Below, piece by piece: positions 11,759 through 20,379 of a DNA stretch of 20,379 nucleotides. The stretch comes from a virus (Duplodnaviria; Heunggongvirae; Uroviricota; Caudoviricetes): the IMG/VR virus record IMGVR_UViG_2706794690_000015, one strand, 5' to 3'. Below the pieces are notes generated by a model. The model was given only the letters and a program-made list of their open reading frames with translations. It made no database searches and was not told where the DNA came from. A program made the position numbers and the translations under genes. How positions within the stretch are numbered: position 1 is the stretch's first letter; the number at the start of each line of letters is the position of its first letter.

Positions 11759-11896
11759 ACGTTACTAGATCAAAGAGCATTAGTTCATATGTAAATTGAC
11801 ATTTTTCTGGCACAGGGGAGAGCTAGCGTGGTTGTCCGCTTTGTGCCAATAGCGGACATTGCTGGCTCATGGTATGTTAGTTTAAGGAGGCAGGTT

Positions 11897-12919
11897 ATGC
11901 CCTGTATTTCGCTGTGGTATAATAGTTGCGCAATTGATACAAGGGAGCGTTACATCGTGAAAATTGTTTTCGAGGTTAATGGAAAGAAAGTTCCACTAAA
12001 ATCTTTAAAATACATAAGCAAAAAAGATCAACTCGAAGTAATGAAAAACTGGTTCTTTGAAAACTTTGAAGATCCGGCAAATGCTTGTCCGTATGAAAGT
12101 AGAGAAGGTGGCTATGCTTACATATATGGCGGGCCGTATGATGCGAGCGAAGAACTACAATCCATCTTCGGTCAATATGTTAAATCTGAGTATATTGAGG
12201 AATTAGTAGATGAATTACAAACACAATGTTTTGACTGGTCTGGAAACTCAAATAATATAGATGATTGGTACGATGATGATATCTACGACGCTGTAACGTC
12301 TTCCGGTAATCCGTATTTAAAATTCATTGATAATATCGATAAAATAAAAAAACTTGCAAAAGATAAAACTGAACAACAGCAAAAAAACCACTTGCTTAGT
12401 TTGCTCTACACGAATGTTATTACAGCTTTGGAAACGCTTTATGTTGAGCTATTCATTAATTCTATAGAGAAAGATGATGTCTACATAGCCAATTGTATAG
12501 AAAAAGGTAAGACTGAATTTAAAGTAAGCAAAGATATTGCTGCGTTGCCTTTCAAGGGTGAACCCATCGAGAAAATTAGGGGAGAGCTAATCAGGTCAAT
12601 CAAGGAACACTTGATCAGTGCAAGCTGGCATAGCACTAAAAAGGTAATCGACCGCTATGAAGCTACATTCGATATAAAAGTACAAAAAGACTGTCCGATA
12701 GAAGCTATTGAATTGGCAACCCTCAATCGAAATCACTTAGTGCATCGTGGTGGAAAGGATAAAGAAGGGAACCTCGTAGTGATTACAGACCAGGATCTTG
12801 AAACGCTGATTGAAAATGCATCGAACCTGGCAATTATGCTCTACAACAGTTTAAATGTAGCAACGAATAAAACCACCATTTTGCAACCAGATGACAAACC
12901 GTTCATTCATGAATTTTAA
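11897..12919 (+). CDS. Cargo protein A: hypothetical, C-terminal HEPN-like R-x4-H motif (candidate RNase toxin/defence effector)
   Basis: AT-rich by eye. AAGGAGG RBS 6 nt before ATG 11897; alternative starts GTG 11828 and GTG 11957. Motif LNRNHLVHRGG at nt 12728-12745 in a helical-looking C-terminal region. Confidence 0.6.
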   Translation: MPCISLWYNSCAIDTRERYIVKIVFEVNGKKVPLKSLKYISKKDQLEVMKNWFFENFEDPANACPYESREGGYAYIYGGPYDASEELQSIFGQYVKSEYIEELVDELQTQCFDWSGNSNNIDDWYDDDIYDAVTSSGNPYLKFIDNIDKIKKLAKDKTEQQQKNHLLSLLYTNVITALETLYVELFINSIEKDDVYIANCIEKGKTEFKVSKDIAALPFKGEPIEKIRGELIRSIKEHLISASWHSTKKVIDRYEATFDIKVQKDCPIEAIELATLNRNHLVHRGGKDKEGNLVVITDQDLETLIENASNLAIMLYNSLNVATNKTTILQPDDKPFIHEF

Positions 12920-12934
12920 TAGCGCAGGTCATAC

Positions 12935-13936
12935 ATGGATATTCGCACACGAAAGACAAAATTTTTAGAGTCGTTAGATTCAACTGAAGTGATACGCAAA
13001 GCAGTAAGTCTCGCTATAGATTGCATTATTGATAATCATAATAGTAATGAAGATACCCCCTTAGTTATTACCAGCTATGATGATCTCTGTAGAATCCAGG
13101 TGCTAAATTATGTACAGGAGTTTTGCGAAGCTGCATTCCCTGATATGGATGAATATTACTTTAGTCCTAACATACTTCGCATCAACGGCAAGACTAGTGA
13201 AGAAGCTTGTATTAACTTAATTAAACTCTTAAGAAGTACAAAAGGCATGCTATTCTGGTCCGATGCCCCATCGTGGTTCGCTAGCCTCCCCGACGGATTA
13301 TTCCATGTTGTTAACATTGATCAAAAAATCGTTACTCGCGGCCTTAATAAGAAAAACTCTAAGCCGACAATAATCAATAAAGATTACAGTGTAGATACAC
13401 TACTATCAGAGCTATTTTTGAATGGCGCACACATGGAGCAACCCAACGTACACAACGTTTCTGAGGGAAACATGAAGTTCTATGATGAATGCCATGCTGG
13501 ATTAATCAGACCAATACCCGCTCCAATAGGCGCGTCATACGATGAAGAGATCACAATTAATTCTCCAGATTGGCAAAAGCTCGCGTGTGTAGCTTTACGC
13601 CGCTATCAGTCGAAGGAATGTCATGACGGAATGCAATGGGATACAACCGATCATGGTTGGACTGATGTAATCGCGTATCCATTCGTCGAAGAAATACAAT
13701 CAATGGATAATAGTGGTTATCGACAATGTTTAGTTGGGCTGGTCACAATAAACAATTCAAATGCAAATTCTCCGTACCTATCTACCGTTTGGATACATCC
13801 ATTTTATCGCAGGAGAGGGTTATTAAGTAAGTTATGGCCAAAATTACAAGAGTTATATGGAAGTAACTTCGAAATTGAGCGACCTAATGAAAATATGAAA
13901 GCATTTCTGAAAAGTGCGAAACACGCAGATTACTAA
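12935..13936 (+). CDS. Cargo protein B: hypothetical, C-terminal GNAT acetyltransferase-like motif
   Basis: Starts 15 nt after A; same AT-rich composition. VWIHPFYRRRGLLSKLWPKLQELY near nt 13808 resembles the GNAT acetyl-CoA-binding motif A. Confidence 0.6.
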   Translation: MDIRTRKTKFLESLDSTEVIRKAVSLAIDCIIDNHNSNEDTPLVITSYDDLCRIQVLNYVQEFCEAAFPDMDEYYFSPNILRINGKTSEEACINLIKLLRSTKGMLFWSDAPSWFASLPDGLFHVVNIDQKIVTRGLNKKNSKPTIINKDYSVDTLLSELFLNGAHMEQPNVHNVSEGNMKFYDECHAGLIRPIPAPIGASYDEEITINSPDWQKLACVALRRYQSKECHDGMQWDTTDHGWTDVIAYPFVEEIQSMDNSGYRQCLVGLVTINNSNANSPYLSTVWIHPFYRRRGLLSKLWPKLQELYGSNFEIERPNENMKAFLKSAKHADY

Positions 13937-14490
13937 TTTATGAATCAGTCTGTGGAGTTAGGGTTGGTGTGAACAAGTAGGGTAAGAGCCTCAACGTGAT
14001 GCTATGCCGACCTGCTCCCTGAGAATTCACACAGAAGGCTGCTAGCAATGTCTGCAGATCGCTCAAAGCGGACTAAAATGTTGGCTTGTTTCTGACTTAG
14101 AGCATTTAAGGAAGTGCTGGTGGTGACTGGTTGTTGTGTTCCATTTCTACAGAATAAAATCACAGAAACTATACCCAATAGTTGTATTGAATCACTGACG
14201 AGACAGCCTCATATTTATCAGGACTGGTGTGCGTCTAATACAGGGGGTTGTCGTGCTGGTTCTCAAATGTGCGCTGGCTATTGCGGCTGTAATGGCAATT
14301 TATTGTCTTGCTGTTGTTCTTATGGAGCGGCTTTCTGATTGATTACATACTGGCTAGAAAAAAGGTGTTACCTTGGTTTATCTTTGTCCGGCAAGGTGCG
14401 CTCATTAATCTTAAGTAAATTTATTGCTCAAGTATTCAGATTACTTCTTATGGTTGAAGTCTCCTGTCAATGTAGAACCAATATATTTAC

Positions 14491-14527
14491 AAAAATGAGA
14501 CCCGTCGGGGATAGCCCTGCCGGGTCT
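14491..14527 (-). terminator. Rho-independent terminator downstream of the YeaR-like gene
   Basis: Stem AGACCCG (14498-14504) / CGGGTCT (14521-14527); A-run 14491-14497 gives a U-tract on the minus-strand transcript. Confidence 0.45.
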
Positions 14528-14556
14528 GACTGTTAAAGCATTTTTAATATGATCAT

Positions 14557-14895
14557 CTATTTTTTGGTGCTATAGACTTTTTCGCCCGAAAAGTCTGGAG
14601 CGACCCAAAAGTTAATATTAAACTGAGCATCATCGCTTAGTTCAACACGGTGCCAGTATTGTGGTGGGCTTGTTGCAAAAGCGCCAGCATTAATGACTAC
14701 TTTTATCTCCGGTTCAGTAGCATTCTCATCAGTAAAACCATAATATGTTACAGTGCCTTCCATTACGCACAACTGCCCAAAAACACCTGCTGCTGTATTA
14801 TGATGTGTTAATAACGCTGAAGGTACGTTCTCTTTTGTGAAGAACGGAGTTGAGCGTTTGATTACCCAATCTTTAGGAATTCTCTTGTGTGTCAT
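14557..14895 (-). CDS. DUF1971 (YeaR-like) cupin-type protein, about 112 aa from MTHKRIPKDW
   Basis: Resembles E. coli YeaR as I recall it (RSTPF..., ...FNINFWVAP). GGAGGAGGTGG RBS before ATG 14895. Its upstream region runs into the N gap. Confidence 0.7.
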   Translation of the reverse strand: MTHKRIPKDWVIKRSTPFFTKENVPSALLTHHNTAAGVFGQLCVMEGTVTYYGFTDENATEPEIKVVINAGAFATSPPQYWHRVELSDDAQFNINFWVAPDFSGEKVYSTKK

Positions 14896-14957
14896 AACCA
14901 CCTCCTCCAAAACATGCATTAAAAATGCATCTTTTGGAGGGTTATGTCAAGCTGTTA

Positions 14958-15127
14958 NNNNNNNNNNNNNNNNNNNNNNNNNNNNNNNNNNNNNNNNNNN
15001 NNNNNNNNNNNNNNNNNNNNNNNNNNNNNNNNNNNNNNNNNNNNNNNNNNNNNNNNNNNNNNNNNNNNNNNNNNNNNNNNNNNNNNNNNNNNNNNNNNNN
15101 NNNNNNNNNNNNNNNNNNNNNNNNNNN
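14958..15127. other. Run of 170 N (gap or masked sequence)
   Basis: Literal n characters in the sequence. Confidence 1.
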
Positions 15128-15636
15128 ATTTTCCCAGGATACCTTTACTGTGTATATAAATAAATTATATACGCATAAATAATGTAAAGGCGTCCTTTTA
15201 GATATATCTTATCAAATGTTAATGACTTGAGTGGGAAATATGATTCCAGCAACTTATCATGTGGCTACTTTATAAAAATAATGCCCATATAAAACAACAA
15301 GCGAAAAGGATTACGGATAAAAAAGGAGCGAGATGTGCGAACTTGTTATTTTCCATGTTTAACCACCTTAAATAATTGATGATGACGGGATGATTGCATC
15401 TGTAATGCTTTTATTGAAATGTTATGATAAAAAAGAACTTTTGCATAACATTAAAATGTAATTTATCTAATCGTTTTTAATAATAAGTGTCGTATTTCTA
15501 TCCTTGTACCAGCTATTTGATATGTAGTGTTTGTTCATGCTATGTGGGGCTTTACACCATAGCCAGTTTATTTATACTTTATTCGTCAGCCTGAACAACT
15601 GGCATCTGCTGCGCTGCGCCATCGAGAGATTGAGAA

Positions 15637-16236
15637 ATGGCGCATATACAACTGGTCAAACAAACCTCTTCTGGTTTACTTCTCCCGGCGACGCCGGAGA
15701 GTTGCGATTTTCTGCATCAAATCAAAATAGGTGAGTGGATACACGCAGACTTTAAGCGTGTGCGTAACTACGCATTCCACAAGCGTTTTTTCAAACTCCT
15801 GCAACTGGGATTCGATTACTGGACTCCGGTCGGTGGGGCGATCACGCCTCGCGAACGAGAACTGCTGTCTGGTTTCGTTGATTACCTGTGCGAATCAGTT
15901 GGTCGGGAACACACGCCAGCCCTGAGTGATGCCGCAGAGCAATACCTTAACACCGTTGCGACTCGTAGAACCCGGGATACGGCGTTGCTAAAGTCGTTTG
16001 AGGCTTTCCGCGAGTGGGTAACCATTCAGGCCGGATTTTACACCGAGCATATTTATCCGGACGGTAGCCGTGGGCGTCGGGCAAAATCCATCGCTTTTGC
16101 GAATATGGACGAAGTCGAGTTTCAGCAGGTTTATAAATCTGTACTGAATGTGCTGTGGAACTGGATTCTGTTCCGTAAATTCTCCTCTCAGGAGGAAGTT
16201 GAAAATGTGGCCGCACAACTACTGGAGTTTGCGTAA
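15637..16236 (+). CDS. nin-region phage protein, likely DUF1367 family, 199 aa
   Basis: Position between replication genes and Q; family assignment from memory only. Confidence 0.55.
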   Translation: MAHIQLVKQTSSGLLLPATPESCDFLHQIKIGEWIHADFKRVRNYAFHKRFFKLLQLGFDYWTPVGGAITPRERELLSGFVDYLCESVGREHTPALSDAAEQYLNTVATRRTRDTALLKSFEAFREWVTIQAGFYTEHIYPDGSRGRRAKSIAFANMDEVEFQQVYKSVLNVLWNWILFRKFSSQEEVENVAAQLLEFA

Positions 16237-16526
16237 TGGTGAATTTACGTAAAGCGGCTAAAGGCCAGATGTGCCAGATCAGAATCCCTGGCTACTGCAA
16301 TCACAATCCCGAAACCTCTGTGCTGGCGCATTACAGGCTGGCGGGGACGTGCGGAACAGCGACAAAACCACATGATATGCAGGCGGCGATAGCCTGTAGC
16401 TCATGCCACGATCTAATCGACGGGCGGGTAAAAACCAGCGATTACACCAAAGAAGAATTGCGCCTGATGCATGCTGAAGGGGTTTTTCGCACACAAGAAA
16501 TCTGGAGAAAGAAAGGTCATTTATGA
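16236..16526 (+). CDS. YbcO-like (DUF1364) putative zinc-binding nuclease, 96 aa
   Basis: ATG overlaps the upstream stop (TAATG). Cys/His-rich (CQIRIPGYCNHNPETSVLAH, CSSCHDL); resembles DLP12 YbcO. Confidence 0.65.
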   Translation: MVNLRKAAKGQMCQIRIPGYCNHNPETSVLAHYRLAGTCGTATKPHDMQAAIACSSCHDLIDGRVKTSDYTKEELRLMHAEGVFRTQEIWRKKGHL

Positions 16527-17065
16527 TTTACCCAACGAATACAGGAAAAAGCGGAGAACACCTTCGCCTCACCACGCTGGAAAGTGTCTGGATTCAGGGA
16601 AAACTACGTATGTGGGGGCGCTGGTCGTATATTGGCGGTGGCAGGTCAGGGAATATGTTCAATCAGTTGTTGGCATCCAAAAAACTGACGAAAACAGCCA
16701 TTAATGAAGCCCTGCGCAGAATGAAAAAAGCGGGAATAGAGAAAGCTGAGCTGGAAGCGTTTTTGCGAGAGATGATCAACGGCAAGCAAAAGAGCTGGCT
16801 GGCGCATTGTACTGATGCAGAGGCGTTATGTATTGATCGAGTCATAAGTGAGGTGCTGGCAGAGCATCCAGGATTGATTTGCATTCTCCGGCAACGCTAT
16901 GAAGGGCGGGGGATGACTAAGCGCAAAATGGCTGAATTGCTAAATGATGCACACCCAGAGTGGTGTTTTAGCACATGCGAAAAACGGATTGCTAATTGGT
17001 TAGCTGTTGCTGAGTATGCCCTATATATTCCCATGCGTGAATCATTTGCTGAGAAAATGGCTTGA
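16523..17065 (+). CDS. Late-gene antiterminator Q-like protein, 180 aa
   Basis: Last gene before a strong hairpin and the lysis cassette. N-terminal W-G-x-W region (LRMWGRWSYIGGG) resembles the Q family typified by DLP12 QuuD. Family call from memory. Confidence 0.6.
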   Translation: MIYPTNTGKSGEHLRLTTLESVWIQGKLRMWGRWSYIGGGRSGNMFNQLLASKKLTKTAINEALRRMKKAGIEKAELEAFLREMINGKQKSWLAHCTDAEALCIDRVISEVLAEHPGLICILRQRYEGRGMTKRKMAELLNDAHPEWCFSTCEKRIANWLAVAEYALYIPMRESFAEKMA

Positions 17066-17142
17066 TTTCTTACGTATAAACTGCTTCAATTTTGCTATGC
17101 TTCGCAAAGCTGTATCGCGAGGCGGATTGCAGACATGGACAT

Positions 17143-17175
17143 CGTAAAAAAACCGCTTAATGCGGTTTTTTTACG
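17143..17175. terminator. Perfect palindrome A7-CCGC-TTAAT-GCGG-T7, candidate bidirectional terminator (tR-prime-like)
   Basis: cgtaaaaaaaccgcttaatgcggtttttttacg, about 80 nt after the Q-like stop. Confidence 0.5.
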
Positions 17176-17494
17176 TCAGGAAAGCAGGGGAGAATGCTGC
17201 TAGTTGGGCAACTGGTCTTTCTGCTCCAAATTATAACAGAGACCAGTTATAGTTTCGGTGCTGTGTTTTTTTTACAATATTGTGATAACACATTGCTGGC
17301 GGGAGTTTTGATATTTCTTGGCAGGGGCTGATGATGCGTTATCCTGATGTCGTCAACTCATATAAAATGAGATGAGAGATCATTGCAGGGTGGTTTGTAA
17401 TTCGCTGTTTAGCGGGACAATATGTTGTCTGATACAAGACACCCGACGCCTCAGATTACTATAATAAAGACGAAGCATCCTTTGTATTGACCAA

Positions 17495-17518
17495 CCGCCT
17501 GTTTAGGCGGTTCTTTTT
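17495..17518 (+). terminator. Candidate rho-independent terminator
   Basis: CCGCCT-GTTT-AGGCGG followed by TTCTTTTT. Confidence 0.45.
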
Positions 17519-18050
17519 GGGCTGGTTTATTGTATGCCAAATGATTATTAAAAAGGTTGTGTTAATAACAAGATCCGAAATAATATGCCTGCATATTTTT
17601 ATCTTGCTTATATTCTGCATATTGTGCATAGCAGGCTCATCCCTGCAATCAAAACTGTATGATGAGTATTTTTTGTTTTCCTTTTTTCCAGTCATCTGAT
17701 GATGACCTGCTTCTTTTTAATCCGGATCGACATCAGTTTTTTAAGATAATTCCTGCGAGTTATATGCATAAATGCCACAAACTCCGCATTTTATGTGGTT
17801 GGGAGTTGCCGGGCGCGCAGTGAGTTTGCTAAGAAAACTCCTGCATGGTGAATCCCCCTGTGCGGTGGGGTGATACCATTAACCTTTTCTGTCGCCGACA
17901 GGTATCACGAACATTTTGTTCACCGGGAGGCACCCGGCACCATGCACTTCAATAGATTCTCTCCACATTATGGATATTCTTTCAGAATATCCCACGCAGA
18001 CTTTGTGTAAATGTTAACAAATGTGCGTTTTATTTGATCTGATTCGCTGT

Positions 18051-18080
18051 TTGAGCGTCCAAAACAACGGTATATATAAT
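18051..18080 (+). promoter_or_regulatory. Candidate sigma-70 promoter for the first TolA-like lipoprotein gene
   Basis: TTGAGC (18051-18056), 18-nt spacer, TATAAT (18075-18080); GAGGAAAA RBS then ATG 18110. Confidence 0.5.
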
Positions 18081-18109
18081 CCTTTACTATATGACATATG
18101 TGAGGAAAA

Positions 18110-18538
18110 ATGGGTTTTCGTAGCGCATCAATTCTTACGTTGATTATTAGTGGGATTATTATCGGGTGCACTGATGCTGTATCGACAAATTATCATGACC
18201 GTACATCATATTACTCCGATAAAGCAATAGAGACACAGTATGTGAGTTCATCTGAACGTACTTCTGATGTTAGTGAGGATATCCGTCTGTATGCCCATCA
18301 AATCAAGAGCGCCATCGAAAAACAGTTCGGGGATGCGAGTAAGTATTCAGGAAAAGAGTGTACACTGAGAATGCATATGGCCCCGAATGGCCTTCTACTG
18401 GAGGTTAAAAGAGAAAGTGGAGACCTCGATTTATGTCGTGAAGCGATGAATGCGATAAAGAATGCTGATATACCTGCCCCCCCTTCGCCGGAAGTATATA
18501 AAGTATTTCAAAATGGGGTGCTGGATTTTAAACCCTGA
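18110..18538 (+). CDS. Lipoprotein with TolA C-terminal (domain III)-like domain, 142 aa
   Basis: Signal peptide with lipobox IIGC. C-terminal ~80 aa (YAHQIKSAIEKQFGDASKYSGKECTLRMHMAPNGLLLEVKRESGDLDLCREAMNAIKNADIPAPPSPEVYKVFQNGVLDFKP) closely parallels the TolA C-terminus as I recall it (...PSQAVYEVFKNAPLDFKP). Confidence 0.7.
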   Translation: MGFRSASILTLIISGIIIGCTDAVSTNYHDRTSYYSDKAIETQYVSSSERTSDVSEDIRLYAHQIKSAIEKQFGDASKYSGKECTLRMHMAPNGLLLEVKRESGDLDLCREAMNAIKNADIPAPPSPEVYKVFQNGVLDFKP

Positions 18539-18688
18539 TATTTATTGTTTTGTAATAAACGGTTTCGGCTTAGGTTTGTTCTGACACAGCTACGGCACTG
18601 AGCTAAATTTAGCGGATAGTCAGCTCTGAGCCAGTGGCGGACGTAACAACTACTATTGCTGAGATTTTAATGGATTGAGGAGCAAGAA

Positions 18689-19084
18689 GTGGGATTAAAG
18701 AAAATCGTTATGTTGACTTTTTGGGTCGGTTTTGTTGCGGGATGCACACCTTTACACCCTTCAGATTGCCACAAAACTACTGCTACAGGTAGTTGCAGTT
18801 CAGGACGCTGGGATGATCAGGATGAATGGGGGGCGCAAGCGCGGGGAATCAGAGCTGCAATTAATGCCAAACTTGATGAGCCGCATAACTGGAAAGGGAA
18901 AAAATGCAGGTTGCATATGGAATTCTCTCAGGATGGCACGGCGTTAAAAATATCTACCAGTAACGGTGATAAAGCCTATTGCGAAGCGATAAAGTCCGCA
19001 GCTCATAAAGCCAAATTTCCGGCCTTCAACAATCCGGAAGTCTACAGAGATTTTCAGAAATCTGGCTTTGACATGCGAGGTTAG
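18689..19084 (+). CDS. Second TolA-domain-III-like lipoprotein (diverged paralogue), 131 aa, GTG start
   Basis: GAGGAG RBS; signal peptide MGLKKIVMLTFWVGFVAGC (lipobox VAGC). Shares GKxCxLxM...C.EA...A...PA...PEVY..FQ skeleton with the upstream gene. Confidence 0.7.
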   Translation: MGLKKIVMLTFWVGFVAGCTPLHPSDCHKTTATGSCSSGRWDDQDEWGAQARGIRAAINAKLDEPHNWKGKKCRLHMEFSQDGTALKISTSNGDKAYCEAIKSAAHKAKFPAFNNPEVYRDFQKSGFDMRG

Positions 19085-19209
19085 CTCTTCAATTACTATA
19101 TCTCATTCATAGCAAACTGACAGATTTGATGATGTTCTATATACGAAACCTGTGATGTCAAGTCTGAGCTAATACAAATAAACATAATATCAGAGAAATA
19201 CATTTTATT

Positions 19210-19233
19210 AGCTCGCTACGGCGAGCTTTTTAT
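19210..19233 (+). terminator. Rho-independent terminator after the lipoprotein pair
   Basis: AGCTCGC-TACG-GCGAGCT followed by TTTTAT. Confidence 0.5.
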
Positions 19234-19335
19234 ATTGCATCGTCTCCAGCATATATATCAATTAAGGCTCTGATTGATGTGTCTGAAAGCCTACACATAA
19301 TAACTATGCCATCCGTTCCGTGCGGAGGTGAGGCT

Positions 19336-19551
19336 ATGAAATCCATGGACAAAATTTCAACAGGCATTGCCTACGGCACCTCCGCAGGCAGTGCTGGCTA
19401 CTGGTTTTTACAGTTGCTCGATAGAGTAACTCCGTCACAGTGGGCTGCAATCGGTGTGCTGGGTAGTCTGGTATTTGGCCTGCTGACGTACCTGACAAAC
19501 CTTTATTTCAAGATTAAAGAAGATAAGCGCAAGGCTGCGAGAGGTGAATAA
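19336..19551 (+). CDS. Class II holin (phage 21 S-like pinholin), 71 aa from MKSMDK
   Basis: GGAGGTGAGG RBS; dual-start M-K-S-M; two TM segments. Track ORF starts at 19279. Confidence 0.8.
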
Positions 19552-19717
19552 TGCCTCCATCATTACGAAAAGTCGTTGCTGCTGCTATTGGTGGCGGAGC
19601 AATTGCTATAGCATCAGTGTTAATCACTGGCCCAAGTGGTAACGATGGTCTGGAAGGTGTCAGCTACATACCATACAAAGATATTGTTGGTGTATGGACT
19701 GTATGTCACGGGCATAC
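19551..19717 (+). CDS. Endolysin, SAR (signal-anchor-release) lysozyme type; N-terminal part only, truncated by N run
   Basis: ATG overlaps holin stop (TAATG). N-terminus [55 protein letters not shown] is the Gly/Ala-rich SAR domain typical of phage 21 R. Confidence 0.7.
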
Positions 19718-19955
19718 NNNNNNNNNNNNNNNNNNNNNNNNNNNNNNNNNNNNNNNNNNNNNNNNNNNNNNNNNNNNNNNNNNNNNNNNNNNNNNNNNNN
19801 NNNNNNNNNNNNNNNNNNNNNNNNNNNNNNNNNNNNNNNNNNNNNNNNNNNNNNNNNNNNNNNNNNNNNNNNNNNNNNNNNNNNNNNNNNNNNNNNNNNN
19901 NNNNNNNNNNNNNNNNNNNNNNNNNNNNNNNNNNNNNNNNNNNNNNNNNNNNNNN
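19718..19955. other. Run of 238 N (gap or masked sequence) covering endolysin C-terminus and Rz start
   Basis: Literal n characters; too short to hold the expected remainder of the endolysin plus the Rz start, so probably not length-preserving. Confidence 1.
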
Positions 19956-20379
19956 CATCATCGTCTGCCTGTCATGGGCTGTTAATCATTACCGTGATAA
20001 CGCCATTACCTACAAAGCCCAGCGCGACAAAAATGCCAGAGAACTGAAGCTGGCGAACGCGGCAATTACTGACATGCAGATGCGTCAGCGTGATGTTGCT
20101 GCGCTCGATGCAAAATACACGAAGGAGTTAGCTGATGCGAAAGCTGAAAATGATGCTCTGCGTGATGATGTTGCCGCTGGTCGTCGTCGGTTGCACATCA
20201 AAGCAGTCTGTCAGTCAGTGCGTGAAGCCACCACCGCCTCCGGCGTGGATAATGCAGCCTCCCCCCGACTGGCAGACACCGCTGAACGGGATTATTTCAC
20301 CCTCCGGGAACGACTGGTAATGATGCAGGCCCAACTTGAAGGTGCTCAGCAATACATAACCGAGCAGTGTTTAAAGTAA
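19956..20379 (+). CDS. Rz i-spanin; 5-prime end lost in the N run
   Basis: Post-gap TM segment then coiled-coil-like [66 protein letters not shown]; ends with TAA at the window end. Confidence 0.75.
20135..20320 (+). CDS. Rz1 o-spanin lipoprotein, embedded in Rz in the +1 frame, 61 aa
   Basis: GAAGGAG RBS; [20 protein letters not shown] lipobox; proline-rich mature part ([15 protein letters not shown]). Confidence 0.8.

Follow-up and report, generated by a model that had tools for sequence, protein, structure and literature searches.

A candidate nitric oxide-inducible moron encoding an STM1808-type DUF1971 protein in a Rac-type lambdoid prophage

We analysed a 20,379-nucleotide (nt) stretch of tailed-phage DNA (IMG/VR record IMGVR_UViG_2706794690_000015; hereafter the window), which is a Rac-type lambdoid prophage, and more specifically a minus-strand gene for a DUF1971 protein located at 14557-14895. 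The encoded protein is a member of the STM1808 type of DUF1971 proteins, and a predicted, near-consensus operator for NsrR, the nitric oxide (NO) sensor of the host, lies over the predicted promoter of the gene. We consider it likely that this gene is an NsrR-repressed, NO-inducible moron encoding an STM1808-type protein. That the protein protects against nitrosative stress is suggested as well, with lower confidence than the regulatory reading.

Results and Discussion

Family and subfamily of the protein

The open reading frame (ORF) at 14557-14919 on the minus strand matches the Pfam DUF1971 profile (PF09313) over its whole length (positions 1-80 of 80; E=2.6e-26; 91.9 bits, for a cut-off of 23.1). 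The presence of a DUF1971 gene on the minus strand, opposite to the early operon, which had been proposed in a preliminary description of the window made from its letters, is thus borne out. RefSeq annotates the coding sequence from the ATG at 14895 in identical genomes, which gives a protein of 112 amino acids (aa), and this ATG lines up with the start codon of chromosomal orthologues. A Shine-Dalgarno sequence can be read just upstream (GGAGGAGGTGG, 14898-14908, minus strand), and its GGAGGT is kept at the same position in the orthologues.

The closest relatives are 73-82% identical to the window protein and 111-114 aa long. They are found in Salmonella, Klebsiella, Raoultella, Citrobacter, Kluyvera, and Leclercia, and the same clade includes the marine genera Vibrio, Aliivibrio, Photobacterium, and Shewanella. 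In an alignment of 16 homologues, identity is 73-82% to the 15 members of this STM1808-type clade, versus 42% to E. coli K-12 YeaR, and the top 120 database matches all belong to the STM1808-type clade. The gene had been described as YeaR-like, which holds for the DUF1971 domain but not for the subfamily: identity to YeaR is only 41%, and no ORF resembling yoaG (DUF1869) was found downstream of the gene, where a hairpin and, beyond it, the convergent cargo genes come after the stop codon.

Two histidines, H32 and H82, are invariant in the 16 aligned homologues and occupy the same positions, 32 and 82, in the window protein. Salmonella STM1808 is reportedly a zinc protein in which H32 and H82 are needed for NO resistance. 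The orthologue of Salmonella diarizonae (113 aa) is located directly after nhaB-dsbB, genes which we take to be STM1806 (nhaB) and STM1807 (dsbB) in strain LT2, so that the slot after dsbB would be that of STM1808. This gene order suggests together with the published annotation that the 113-aa Salmonella protein is STM1808. Published descriptions of STM1808 read "putative cytoplasmic protein; NsrR regulon" and ascribe to it a role in virulence, with reference to Karlinsey et al. 2012 (PMC7527575; PMC7082413).

The window protein also matches PDB entry 3DL3 at about 80% identity over its full length (E=3.5e-59), and its fold can thus be regarded as effectively solved. This entry, whose sequence is nearly identical to Aliivibrio fischeri P0039, is labelled "tellurite resistance protein B", and some RefSeq records likewise carry the name TehB, an S-adenosylmethionine-dependent tellurite methyltransferase. 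We rejected this assignment, as the equivalog cut-off of the NCBIfam TehB model (NF008992) is missed by far (49.1 bits versus 303). The match is confined to the N-terminal DUF1971 portion of the model (positions 11-106 of 289) and does not include the methyltransferase domain, which makes the name misleading. In PHROGs, the family is entered as having an unknown function.

A predicted NsrR operator over the promoter

To score candidate operators, we used a symmetric weight matrix derived from 26 distinct NsrR 11-1-11 sites of E. coli CFT073 (Mehta et al. 2015, PMC5320621, Table 4). An 11-1-11 inverted repeat at 14911-14933 (gene strand AAGATGCATTTTTAATGCATGTT), centred 27 nt upstream of the ATG, reaches 27.8 bits and ranks second against the 26 published sites, below only ytfE (31.3 bits on the same matrix, on which hcp scores 25.8 and K-12 yeaR 23.9). 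No other position in the 20-kb window exceeds 13.8 bits. A consensus search (AAGATGCATTT-N-AAATGCATCTT) also returned one site, with 2 mismatches, where 0.00 were expected by chance in 100 shuffles.

The operator overlaps a predicted sigma-70 promoter on the minus strand (14922-14950), which consists of a consensus -35 box (TTGACA, 14945-14950), a 17-bp spacer, and a -10 box (CATTTT, 14922-14927). As the -10 box sits within the operator, bound NsrR would cover both this box and the predicted start site, which is expected near 14915. A corresponding layout (TTTACA-17-TATTTT, with the operator over the -10 box) is column-aligned in Kluyvera, Enterobacter, Pantoea, and Pseudescherichia. The preliminary description had supposed that regulatory signals might be hidden under a run of 170 N letters (N run, 14958-15127), which the upstream side of the gene runs into; the core signals are instead found in the 62 nt that are visible upstream of the ATG.

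Conservation of the operator was surveyed in the best 80 orthologous loci from species-representative genomes. Of the 52 Enterobacterales loci, 51 carry an NsrR site that scores 18 bits or more (above 27 bits in most of them) and whose centre precedes the ATG by 27-39 nt. The background of sites of at least 15 bits is 1.7e-5 per position. The operator is similarly present in 36 of 36 IMG/VR viral contigs with readable upstream sequence (17.7-29 bits), and the TTGACA box in all 35 E. coli-type contigs among them. A Shigella flexneri locus (SFBU0723), which is free of the N run, carries a differing operator variant.

The proposed mechanism is as follows. The moron would occupy a Rac-type accessory slot, between the replication and cargo genes on one side and the NinB-like/Q block on the other. 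In a lysogen, the host NsrR, a [4Fe-4S] repressor, would bind in vivo across the start site and the -10 box and thereby silence the gene. NO would nitrosylate the cluster and NsrR would leave the DNA, whereupon transcription would start at the gene's own promoter and end at its own hairpin, the transcript having a short leader that is unstructured and contains a strong ribosome-binding site. The product would be the counterpart of STM1808, which is NsrR-regulated and reportedly needed for growth under nitrosative stress. Binding, induction, and start site are all predicted here from the sequence.

Alternatively, the gene could be a strict copy of yeaR, activated by NarL (and perhaps by Fnr) as well as repressed by NsrR, with its activator sites under the N run. 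Such a copy would share with yeaR both the Pfam domain and the NsrR site, as observed. However, the low identity to YeaR and the presence of a terminator in place of yoaG argue against it, as does the operator, whose centre lies 27 nt from the ATG versus 78 nt in K-12 yeaR. In addition, the consensus TTGACA box implies that no activator is needed. Consensus scans of the whole intergenic sequence in a relative (813 nt, with the portion that the N run replaces) detected no FNR site (at up to 2 mismatches), no CRP site, and no NarL site (neither a 7-2-7 arrangement at up to 3 mismatches nor an exact heptamer), the NarL scan being uninformative, as it also missed the K-12 yeaR promoter used as a positive control, so that some input from NarL is conceivable. 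Of the NsrR-, NarL-, and Fnr-type sites for which a search of the 14896-15636 region had been suggested, the NsrR site was found and an Fnr site was not. Overall, we regard a strict yeaR copy as unlikely.

Several further features of this promoter region were observed. Two promoter types occur among IMG/VR contigs encoding identical proteins: 5 differences are concentrated in a 29-nt segment (41 to 13 nt before the ATG), as against only 6 across the other ~1470 nt compared. Two of these changes, C/A at 41 nt and G/T at 13 nt before the ATG, are complementary and preserve a palindrome; in the commoner type, the left half-site is weaker (20.7 bits) and a perfect TATAAT has been gained. These differences may reflect regulatory tuning or template-switch mutation. 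The palindrome in question is a 60-nt quasi-palindrome (14890-14950; -26.5 kcal/mol, z=-6, on either strand) within which the NsrR site is located, and in any transcript that reads through it, the fold would mask both the start codon and the ribosome-binding site. The extended palindrome was considered as a larger operator and rejected, as it is restricted to this lineage, chromosomal orthologues keeping just the 23-bp core.

In addition, the orthologue in Kluyvera, Leclercia, Pantoea, Enterobacter, Buttiauxella, and Silvania, though not that in Citrobacter, Klebsiella, or Salmonella, is preceded by a Fur-box-like 19-mer (13-17 of 19 matches to GATAATGATAATCATTATC), which lies 74-76 nt before the ATG, immediately ahead of the -35 box. 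None of 3963 control windows exceeded 14 of 19 matches. In the prophage copy, the element has decayed to at most 11 of 19 and is aligned with the first ~20 bases under the N run.

Boundaries of the moron

Downstream of the gene, a terminator-like element (14489-14527, minus strand) consists of a hairpin (AGACCCG...CGGGUCU, 14498-14527) followed on the gene strand by CAUUUUUGU (14489-14497). The hairpin has a minimum free energy of -19.4 kcal/mol (z=-2.1), and 8 of 200 shuffled sequences fold equally well. The terminator ascribed to the gene in the preliminary description is thus a plausible hairpin with a U-tract, of modest statistical significance. Homology to chromosomal orthologues begins ~60 nt before the ATG and does not continue past the stop codon; the orthologues each possess a hairpin of their own.

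Comparisons between prophages delimit the unit from both sides. The same two cargo genes are found without the DUF1971 gene in many genomes, in which homology ends at window position 14357 and is followed by hokD. Conversely, the DUF1971 gene has other left neighbours elsewhere, such as other hypothetical genes, a Hok/Gef gene, or the genes of phage 666R9. In strain FLI21, the upstream spacer is present and the gene absent, with the junction located at the -35 box. In other prophages, the same slot is occupied by iteAS, relBE-hokD, or hokD. Given these junctions and limits of homology, the unit spans ~14489-14950, or roughly 460 bp. With a predicted promoter and a predicted terminator of its own, an orientation opposite to the flanking operons, and a presence/absence pattern with sharp junctions, this unit has the hallmarks of a moron. 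The earlier suggestion that the prophage copy could be a host-regulated moron thereby gains support, both from the conserved, near-consensus putative NsrR operator over the promoter and from the independence of the module from its neighbours.

Distribution and weighing of the evidence

Of 5426 complete E. coli genomes, 458 contain the DUF1971 gene, with no copy below 90% identity. No more divergent copy was detected in these 5426 genomes by blastn, which is sensitive to about 65-70% identity, and a core chromosomal orthologue in E. coli is therefore unlikely. The genomic context was inspected in a handful of the 458 genomes, and in those the gene is prophage- or phage-borne. It is also present in three induced coliphages.

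These data bear on another explanation, namely that the gene is a silent, decaying passenger and that the palindrome is a chance or mutational quasi-palindrome rather than a working operator. Rac-type prophages are often defective, and the palindrome reaches well past the NsrR site in this lineage only, a pattern that template-switch mutation could generate without selection. Nevertheless, the ORF region is covered over at least 80% of its length at 90% identity or more in 453 of the 458 genomes, sampled copies encode proteins that are 97-100% identical, and the invariant residues are preserved. Moreover, sites matching the operator core occupy the same position in about 50 other species, the core is kept in all phage copies despite local change, and inducible phages bear the gene. 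A decaying passenger therefore appears quite improbable to us.

Several observations nonetheless weigh against an NsrR-controlled moron with an STM1808-like role. First, the functional link depends on 79% identity to one Salmonella protein. Second, the -10 hexamer, CATTTT, is weak: it matches the consensus at only 3 of 6 positions, which is why a simple promoter scan missed this promoter. Third, an operator is found in only 2 of the 28 loci from Vibrionales and other marine gammaproteobacteria, so that NsrR control would be lineage-specific and not a property of the protein family. Fourth, phage contigs most often carry an operator variant with a degraded left half (AACACGCATTTATAATGCATGTT, 20.7 bits), and the strength of repression may thus differ among lineages. 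Finally, the terminator is only modestly better than shuffled sequences, and a simple terminator scan did not list it. Taking all of this into account, we still favour the NsrR-repressed moron.

What lies under the N runs

The preliminary description placed a 170-nt N run on the upstream side of the gene, and it is located there, at exactly 14958-15127. This run represents a gap in the assembly or a mask. The corresponding interval is 242 nt long, with a GC content of 25.6%, in 12 E. coli genomes whose identity to the window over the surrounding 4.5 kb is 99.8% or more; related assemblies, to which the preliminary description had pointed, thus show an AT-rich spacer there. The sequence predicted for the window is that of CP084096 at 2836245-2836486. 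Likewise, the intergenic distance in 35 viral contigs is 813 nt or 866-871 nt, and never the 741 nt implied by a true 170-nt interval. A second N run (19718-19955, 238 nt) lies inside the lysozyme gene rrrD, where a near-identical genome has 368 nt. As these lengths disagree with those of relatives, both N runs are gaps or masks of untrue length.

The stretch under the first N run in the window lineage shows a 57-nt deletion at its right edge (alignment columns 389-445). This deletion is flanked by short direct repeats (TTTTCC.GG / ATTTCCAGG), which indicates that indels are frequent in the spacer.

We also weighed whether the N run hides a functional small gene or RNA, acting as a partner or regulator of the DUF1971 gene. 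The candidate is a divergent, plus-strand ORF of 48 aa in relatives, which has a hydrophobic stretch and whose ATG begins at 14957, that is, exactly at the edge of the gap. One phage record lists this ORF as a gene, tens of contigs contain it, and the stretch under the N run is retained in FLI21. However, only 43 aa of the ORF are left in phage 666R9 and AR_0067, codon 31 is a stop in GPEC657, and several of its changes are non-synonymous. It has no Pfam, PHROG, or Rfam match, and no RefSeq annotation was found in the interval across 850 genomes. When the full intergenic sequence of a relative was searched against Rfam, only sub-threshold microRNA-type matches were obtained, and these were caused by the palindrome. 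Furthermore, as the ORF persists in FLI21 without the DUF1971 gene, it is not a dedicated partner. We therefore rejected it as a conserved gene; the small gene suspected under the N run comes down to this truncated or interrupted ORF, and a functional element of this kind is very improbable. The N run is an assembly gap over an AT-rich spacer, which hides nothing essential and is outside the proposed mechanism. In practical terms, N runs may have untrue lengths, and the regulatory information was here located beside the first gap and not beneath it.

The AT-rich stretch upstream of the nin-type genes

Between the N run and the next gene, the 509 bp at 15128-15636 have a GC content of 32.6%, as compared with 44.6% for the window overall. 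The preliminary description of about 500 bp of very AT-rich, non-coding sequence is right as to composition, but not in that the stretch would be wholly non-coding, since it contains a conserved 28-aa ORF. The right-hand 370 nt of the stretch travel with the downstream NinB-like gene and not with the DUF1971 gene.

This ORF (MENNKFAHLAPFLSVILFACCFIWALFL; 15270-15356, minus strand) is a candidate small membrane-protein gene, with a Shine-Dalgarno sequence (AAGGTGG, 15363-15369) located 6 nt upstream. Its length, Shine-Dalgarno sequence, and hydrophobic character are kept in loci whose DNA is only 76-78% identical and whose flanks show indels. It is intact in 119 of 119 IMG/VR viral contigs, with 10 protein variants, although these contigs were chosen by a 21-nt motif of the ORF, which biases the count towards conservation. 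The ORF is unannotated, and it is not in the protein collection because it is under 30 aa. It is found upstream of the NinB-like gene, on the opposite strand, in diverged lambdoid prophages; in the DLP12 prophage of K-12, it was looked for and is absent. A type I toxin-antitoxin reading was set aside, as the sole antisense promoter-like site (15254-15282) is not conserved in diverged variants.

Nearer to the NinB-like gene, a conserved leader of the nin-type genes (15551-15603, plus strand) comprises a promoter-like sequence (TTTACA-16-TATACT, 15551-15578; 10 of 12 in a promoter scan) and a hairpin, GTCAG-CCTGAACAA-CTGGC (15585-15603), located ~35 nt upstream of the gene. The loop CCTGAACAA is invariant across more than 150 phage loci. 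The stem reads GCCAG/CTGGC elsewhere, and GTCACCGGAG/CTCCGGTGAC in K-12 DLP12, upstream of ylcH-ybcN, where it still pairs. No Rfam family matches the hairpin, which by fold energy alone does not reach significance.

One may ask whether the interval between the DUF1971 and NinB-like genes holds more than the moron. The 28-aa ORF may be a real small membrane protein, acting as a toxin or as a modulator of host membrane proteins. The 60-nt quasi-palindrome may be an RNA insulator, as a result of which only transcripts from the NsrR-controlled promoter would be translated. Lastly, NO-induced convergent transcription might interfere with early rightward read-through towards the Q-like gene, thereby linking NO stress to the lysis-lysogeny decision. 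We consider this richer reading of the interval doubtful.

Neighbouring genes and prophage context

The order of annotated genes was taken from the near-identical prophage of E. coli O78 strain 3 (CP084096), which, in the stretches compared, shows 2 mismatches to the window across 15128-19717 and none across 19956-20379. Its left part carries intR, xisR, rcbA, ralR, recT, recE, racC, kilR, sieB, a repressor gene, and ydaS/T/U/V-type genes. The right part carries two hypothetical cargo genes, the DUF1971 gene, genes for DUF1367, DUF1364, and DUF1133 (Q-like) proteins, and lysis genes. The minus-strand DUF1971 gene is flanked on the plus strand by the cargo (11828-13936) and by the DUF1367 gene (15637-16236), and it is convergent with the plus-strand cargo and with the early rightward operon. 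The DUF1367 gene is the NinB-like gene mentioned above (Pfam PF07105, E=6.4e-98; PHROG 319, NinB/Orf); it heads the nin-type block and lies outside the moron.

The two cargo genes belong to PHROGs 17908 and 16994, both of unknown function, and their proteins give weak Pfam hints of HEPN/RES-NTD1 and GNAT-like domains. They travel as one unit, independently of the DUF1971 gene. Membership of the DUF1971 gene and the cargo in an anti-phage defence system was considered and rejected, as PADLOC models gave no match for the DUF1971 gene or for either cargo protein.

Significance and comparison with known systems

E. coli appears to be without a core STM1808-type gene, and about 8% of complete genomes carry the module described here. 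If the gene protects its host against nitrosative stress as its Salmonella counterpart reportedly does, temperate phages would be spreading an NO-defence gene that is pre-wired to the NO sensor of the host, with possible fitness effects in the inflamed gut or urinary tract. The module would join two known kinds of elements, phage morons and the NsrR regulon, and represents a testable case of phage cargo wired to a host stress sensor. In the literature searched, we found no paper tying NsrR to a lambdoid or prophage-borne gene.

The closest known system is Salmonella STM1808. The two proteins are ~79% identical and of similar length (112 versus 113 aa), consist of a single DUF1971 domain, and keep H32 and H82; both genes have an NsrR operator, predicted in the window, shortly upstream of the start codon. 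They differ in that the Salmonella gene is a chromosomal core gene beside dsbB, whereas the one studied here is prophage- or phage-borne, between cargo and nin-type genes, and in that the operator centre is 27 nt from the ATG here versus 39 nt in Salmonella and Citrobacter.

E. coli K-12 YeaR resembles the window protein in its DUF1971 domain, and its gene has an NsrR operator and responds to nitric oxide and nitrate. The yeaR gene reportedly forms an operon with yoaG, and the K-12 promoter is said to depend on NarL. In contrast, the window gene encodes a protein only 41% identical to YeaR, is not accompanied by yoaG, and has a consensus -35 box, as well as an operator much closer to the ATG (27 versus 78 nt). 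The marine orthologues related to PDB 3DL3 differ in another respect, as they are mostly without an NsrR site (present in 2 of 28 loci).

Finally, host-regulated or accessory cargo is well known in lambdoid phages, for example the morons bor and lom of lambda and the Fur-controlled stx1. Like classical lambdoid morons, the DUF1971 gene lies between phage operons, is patchily distributed among related phages, and is predicted to have its own promoter and terminator and to be expressed in the lysogen. Unlike lambda bor and lom and unlike Fur-controlled stx1, it is predicted to be under the control of NsrR, the NO sensor of the host.

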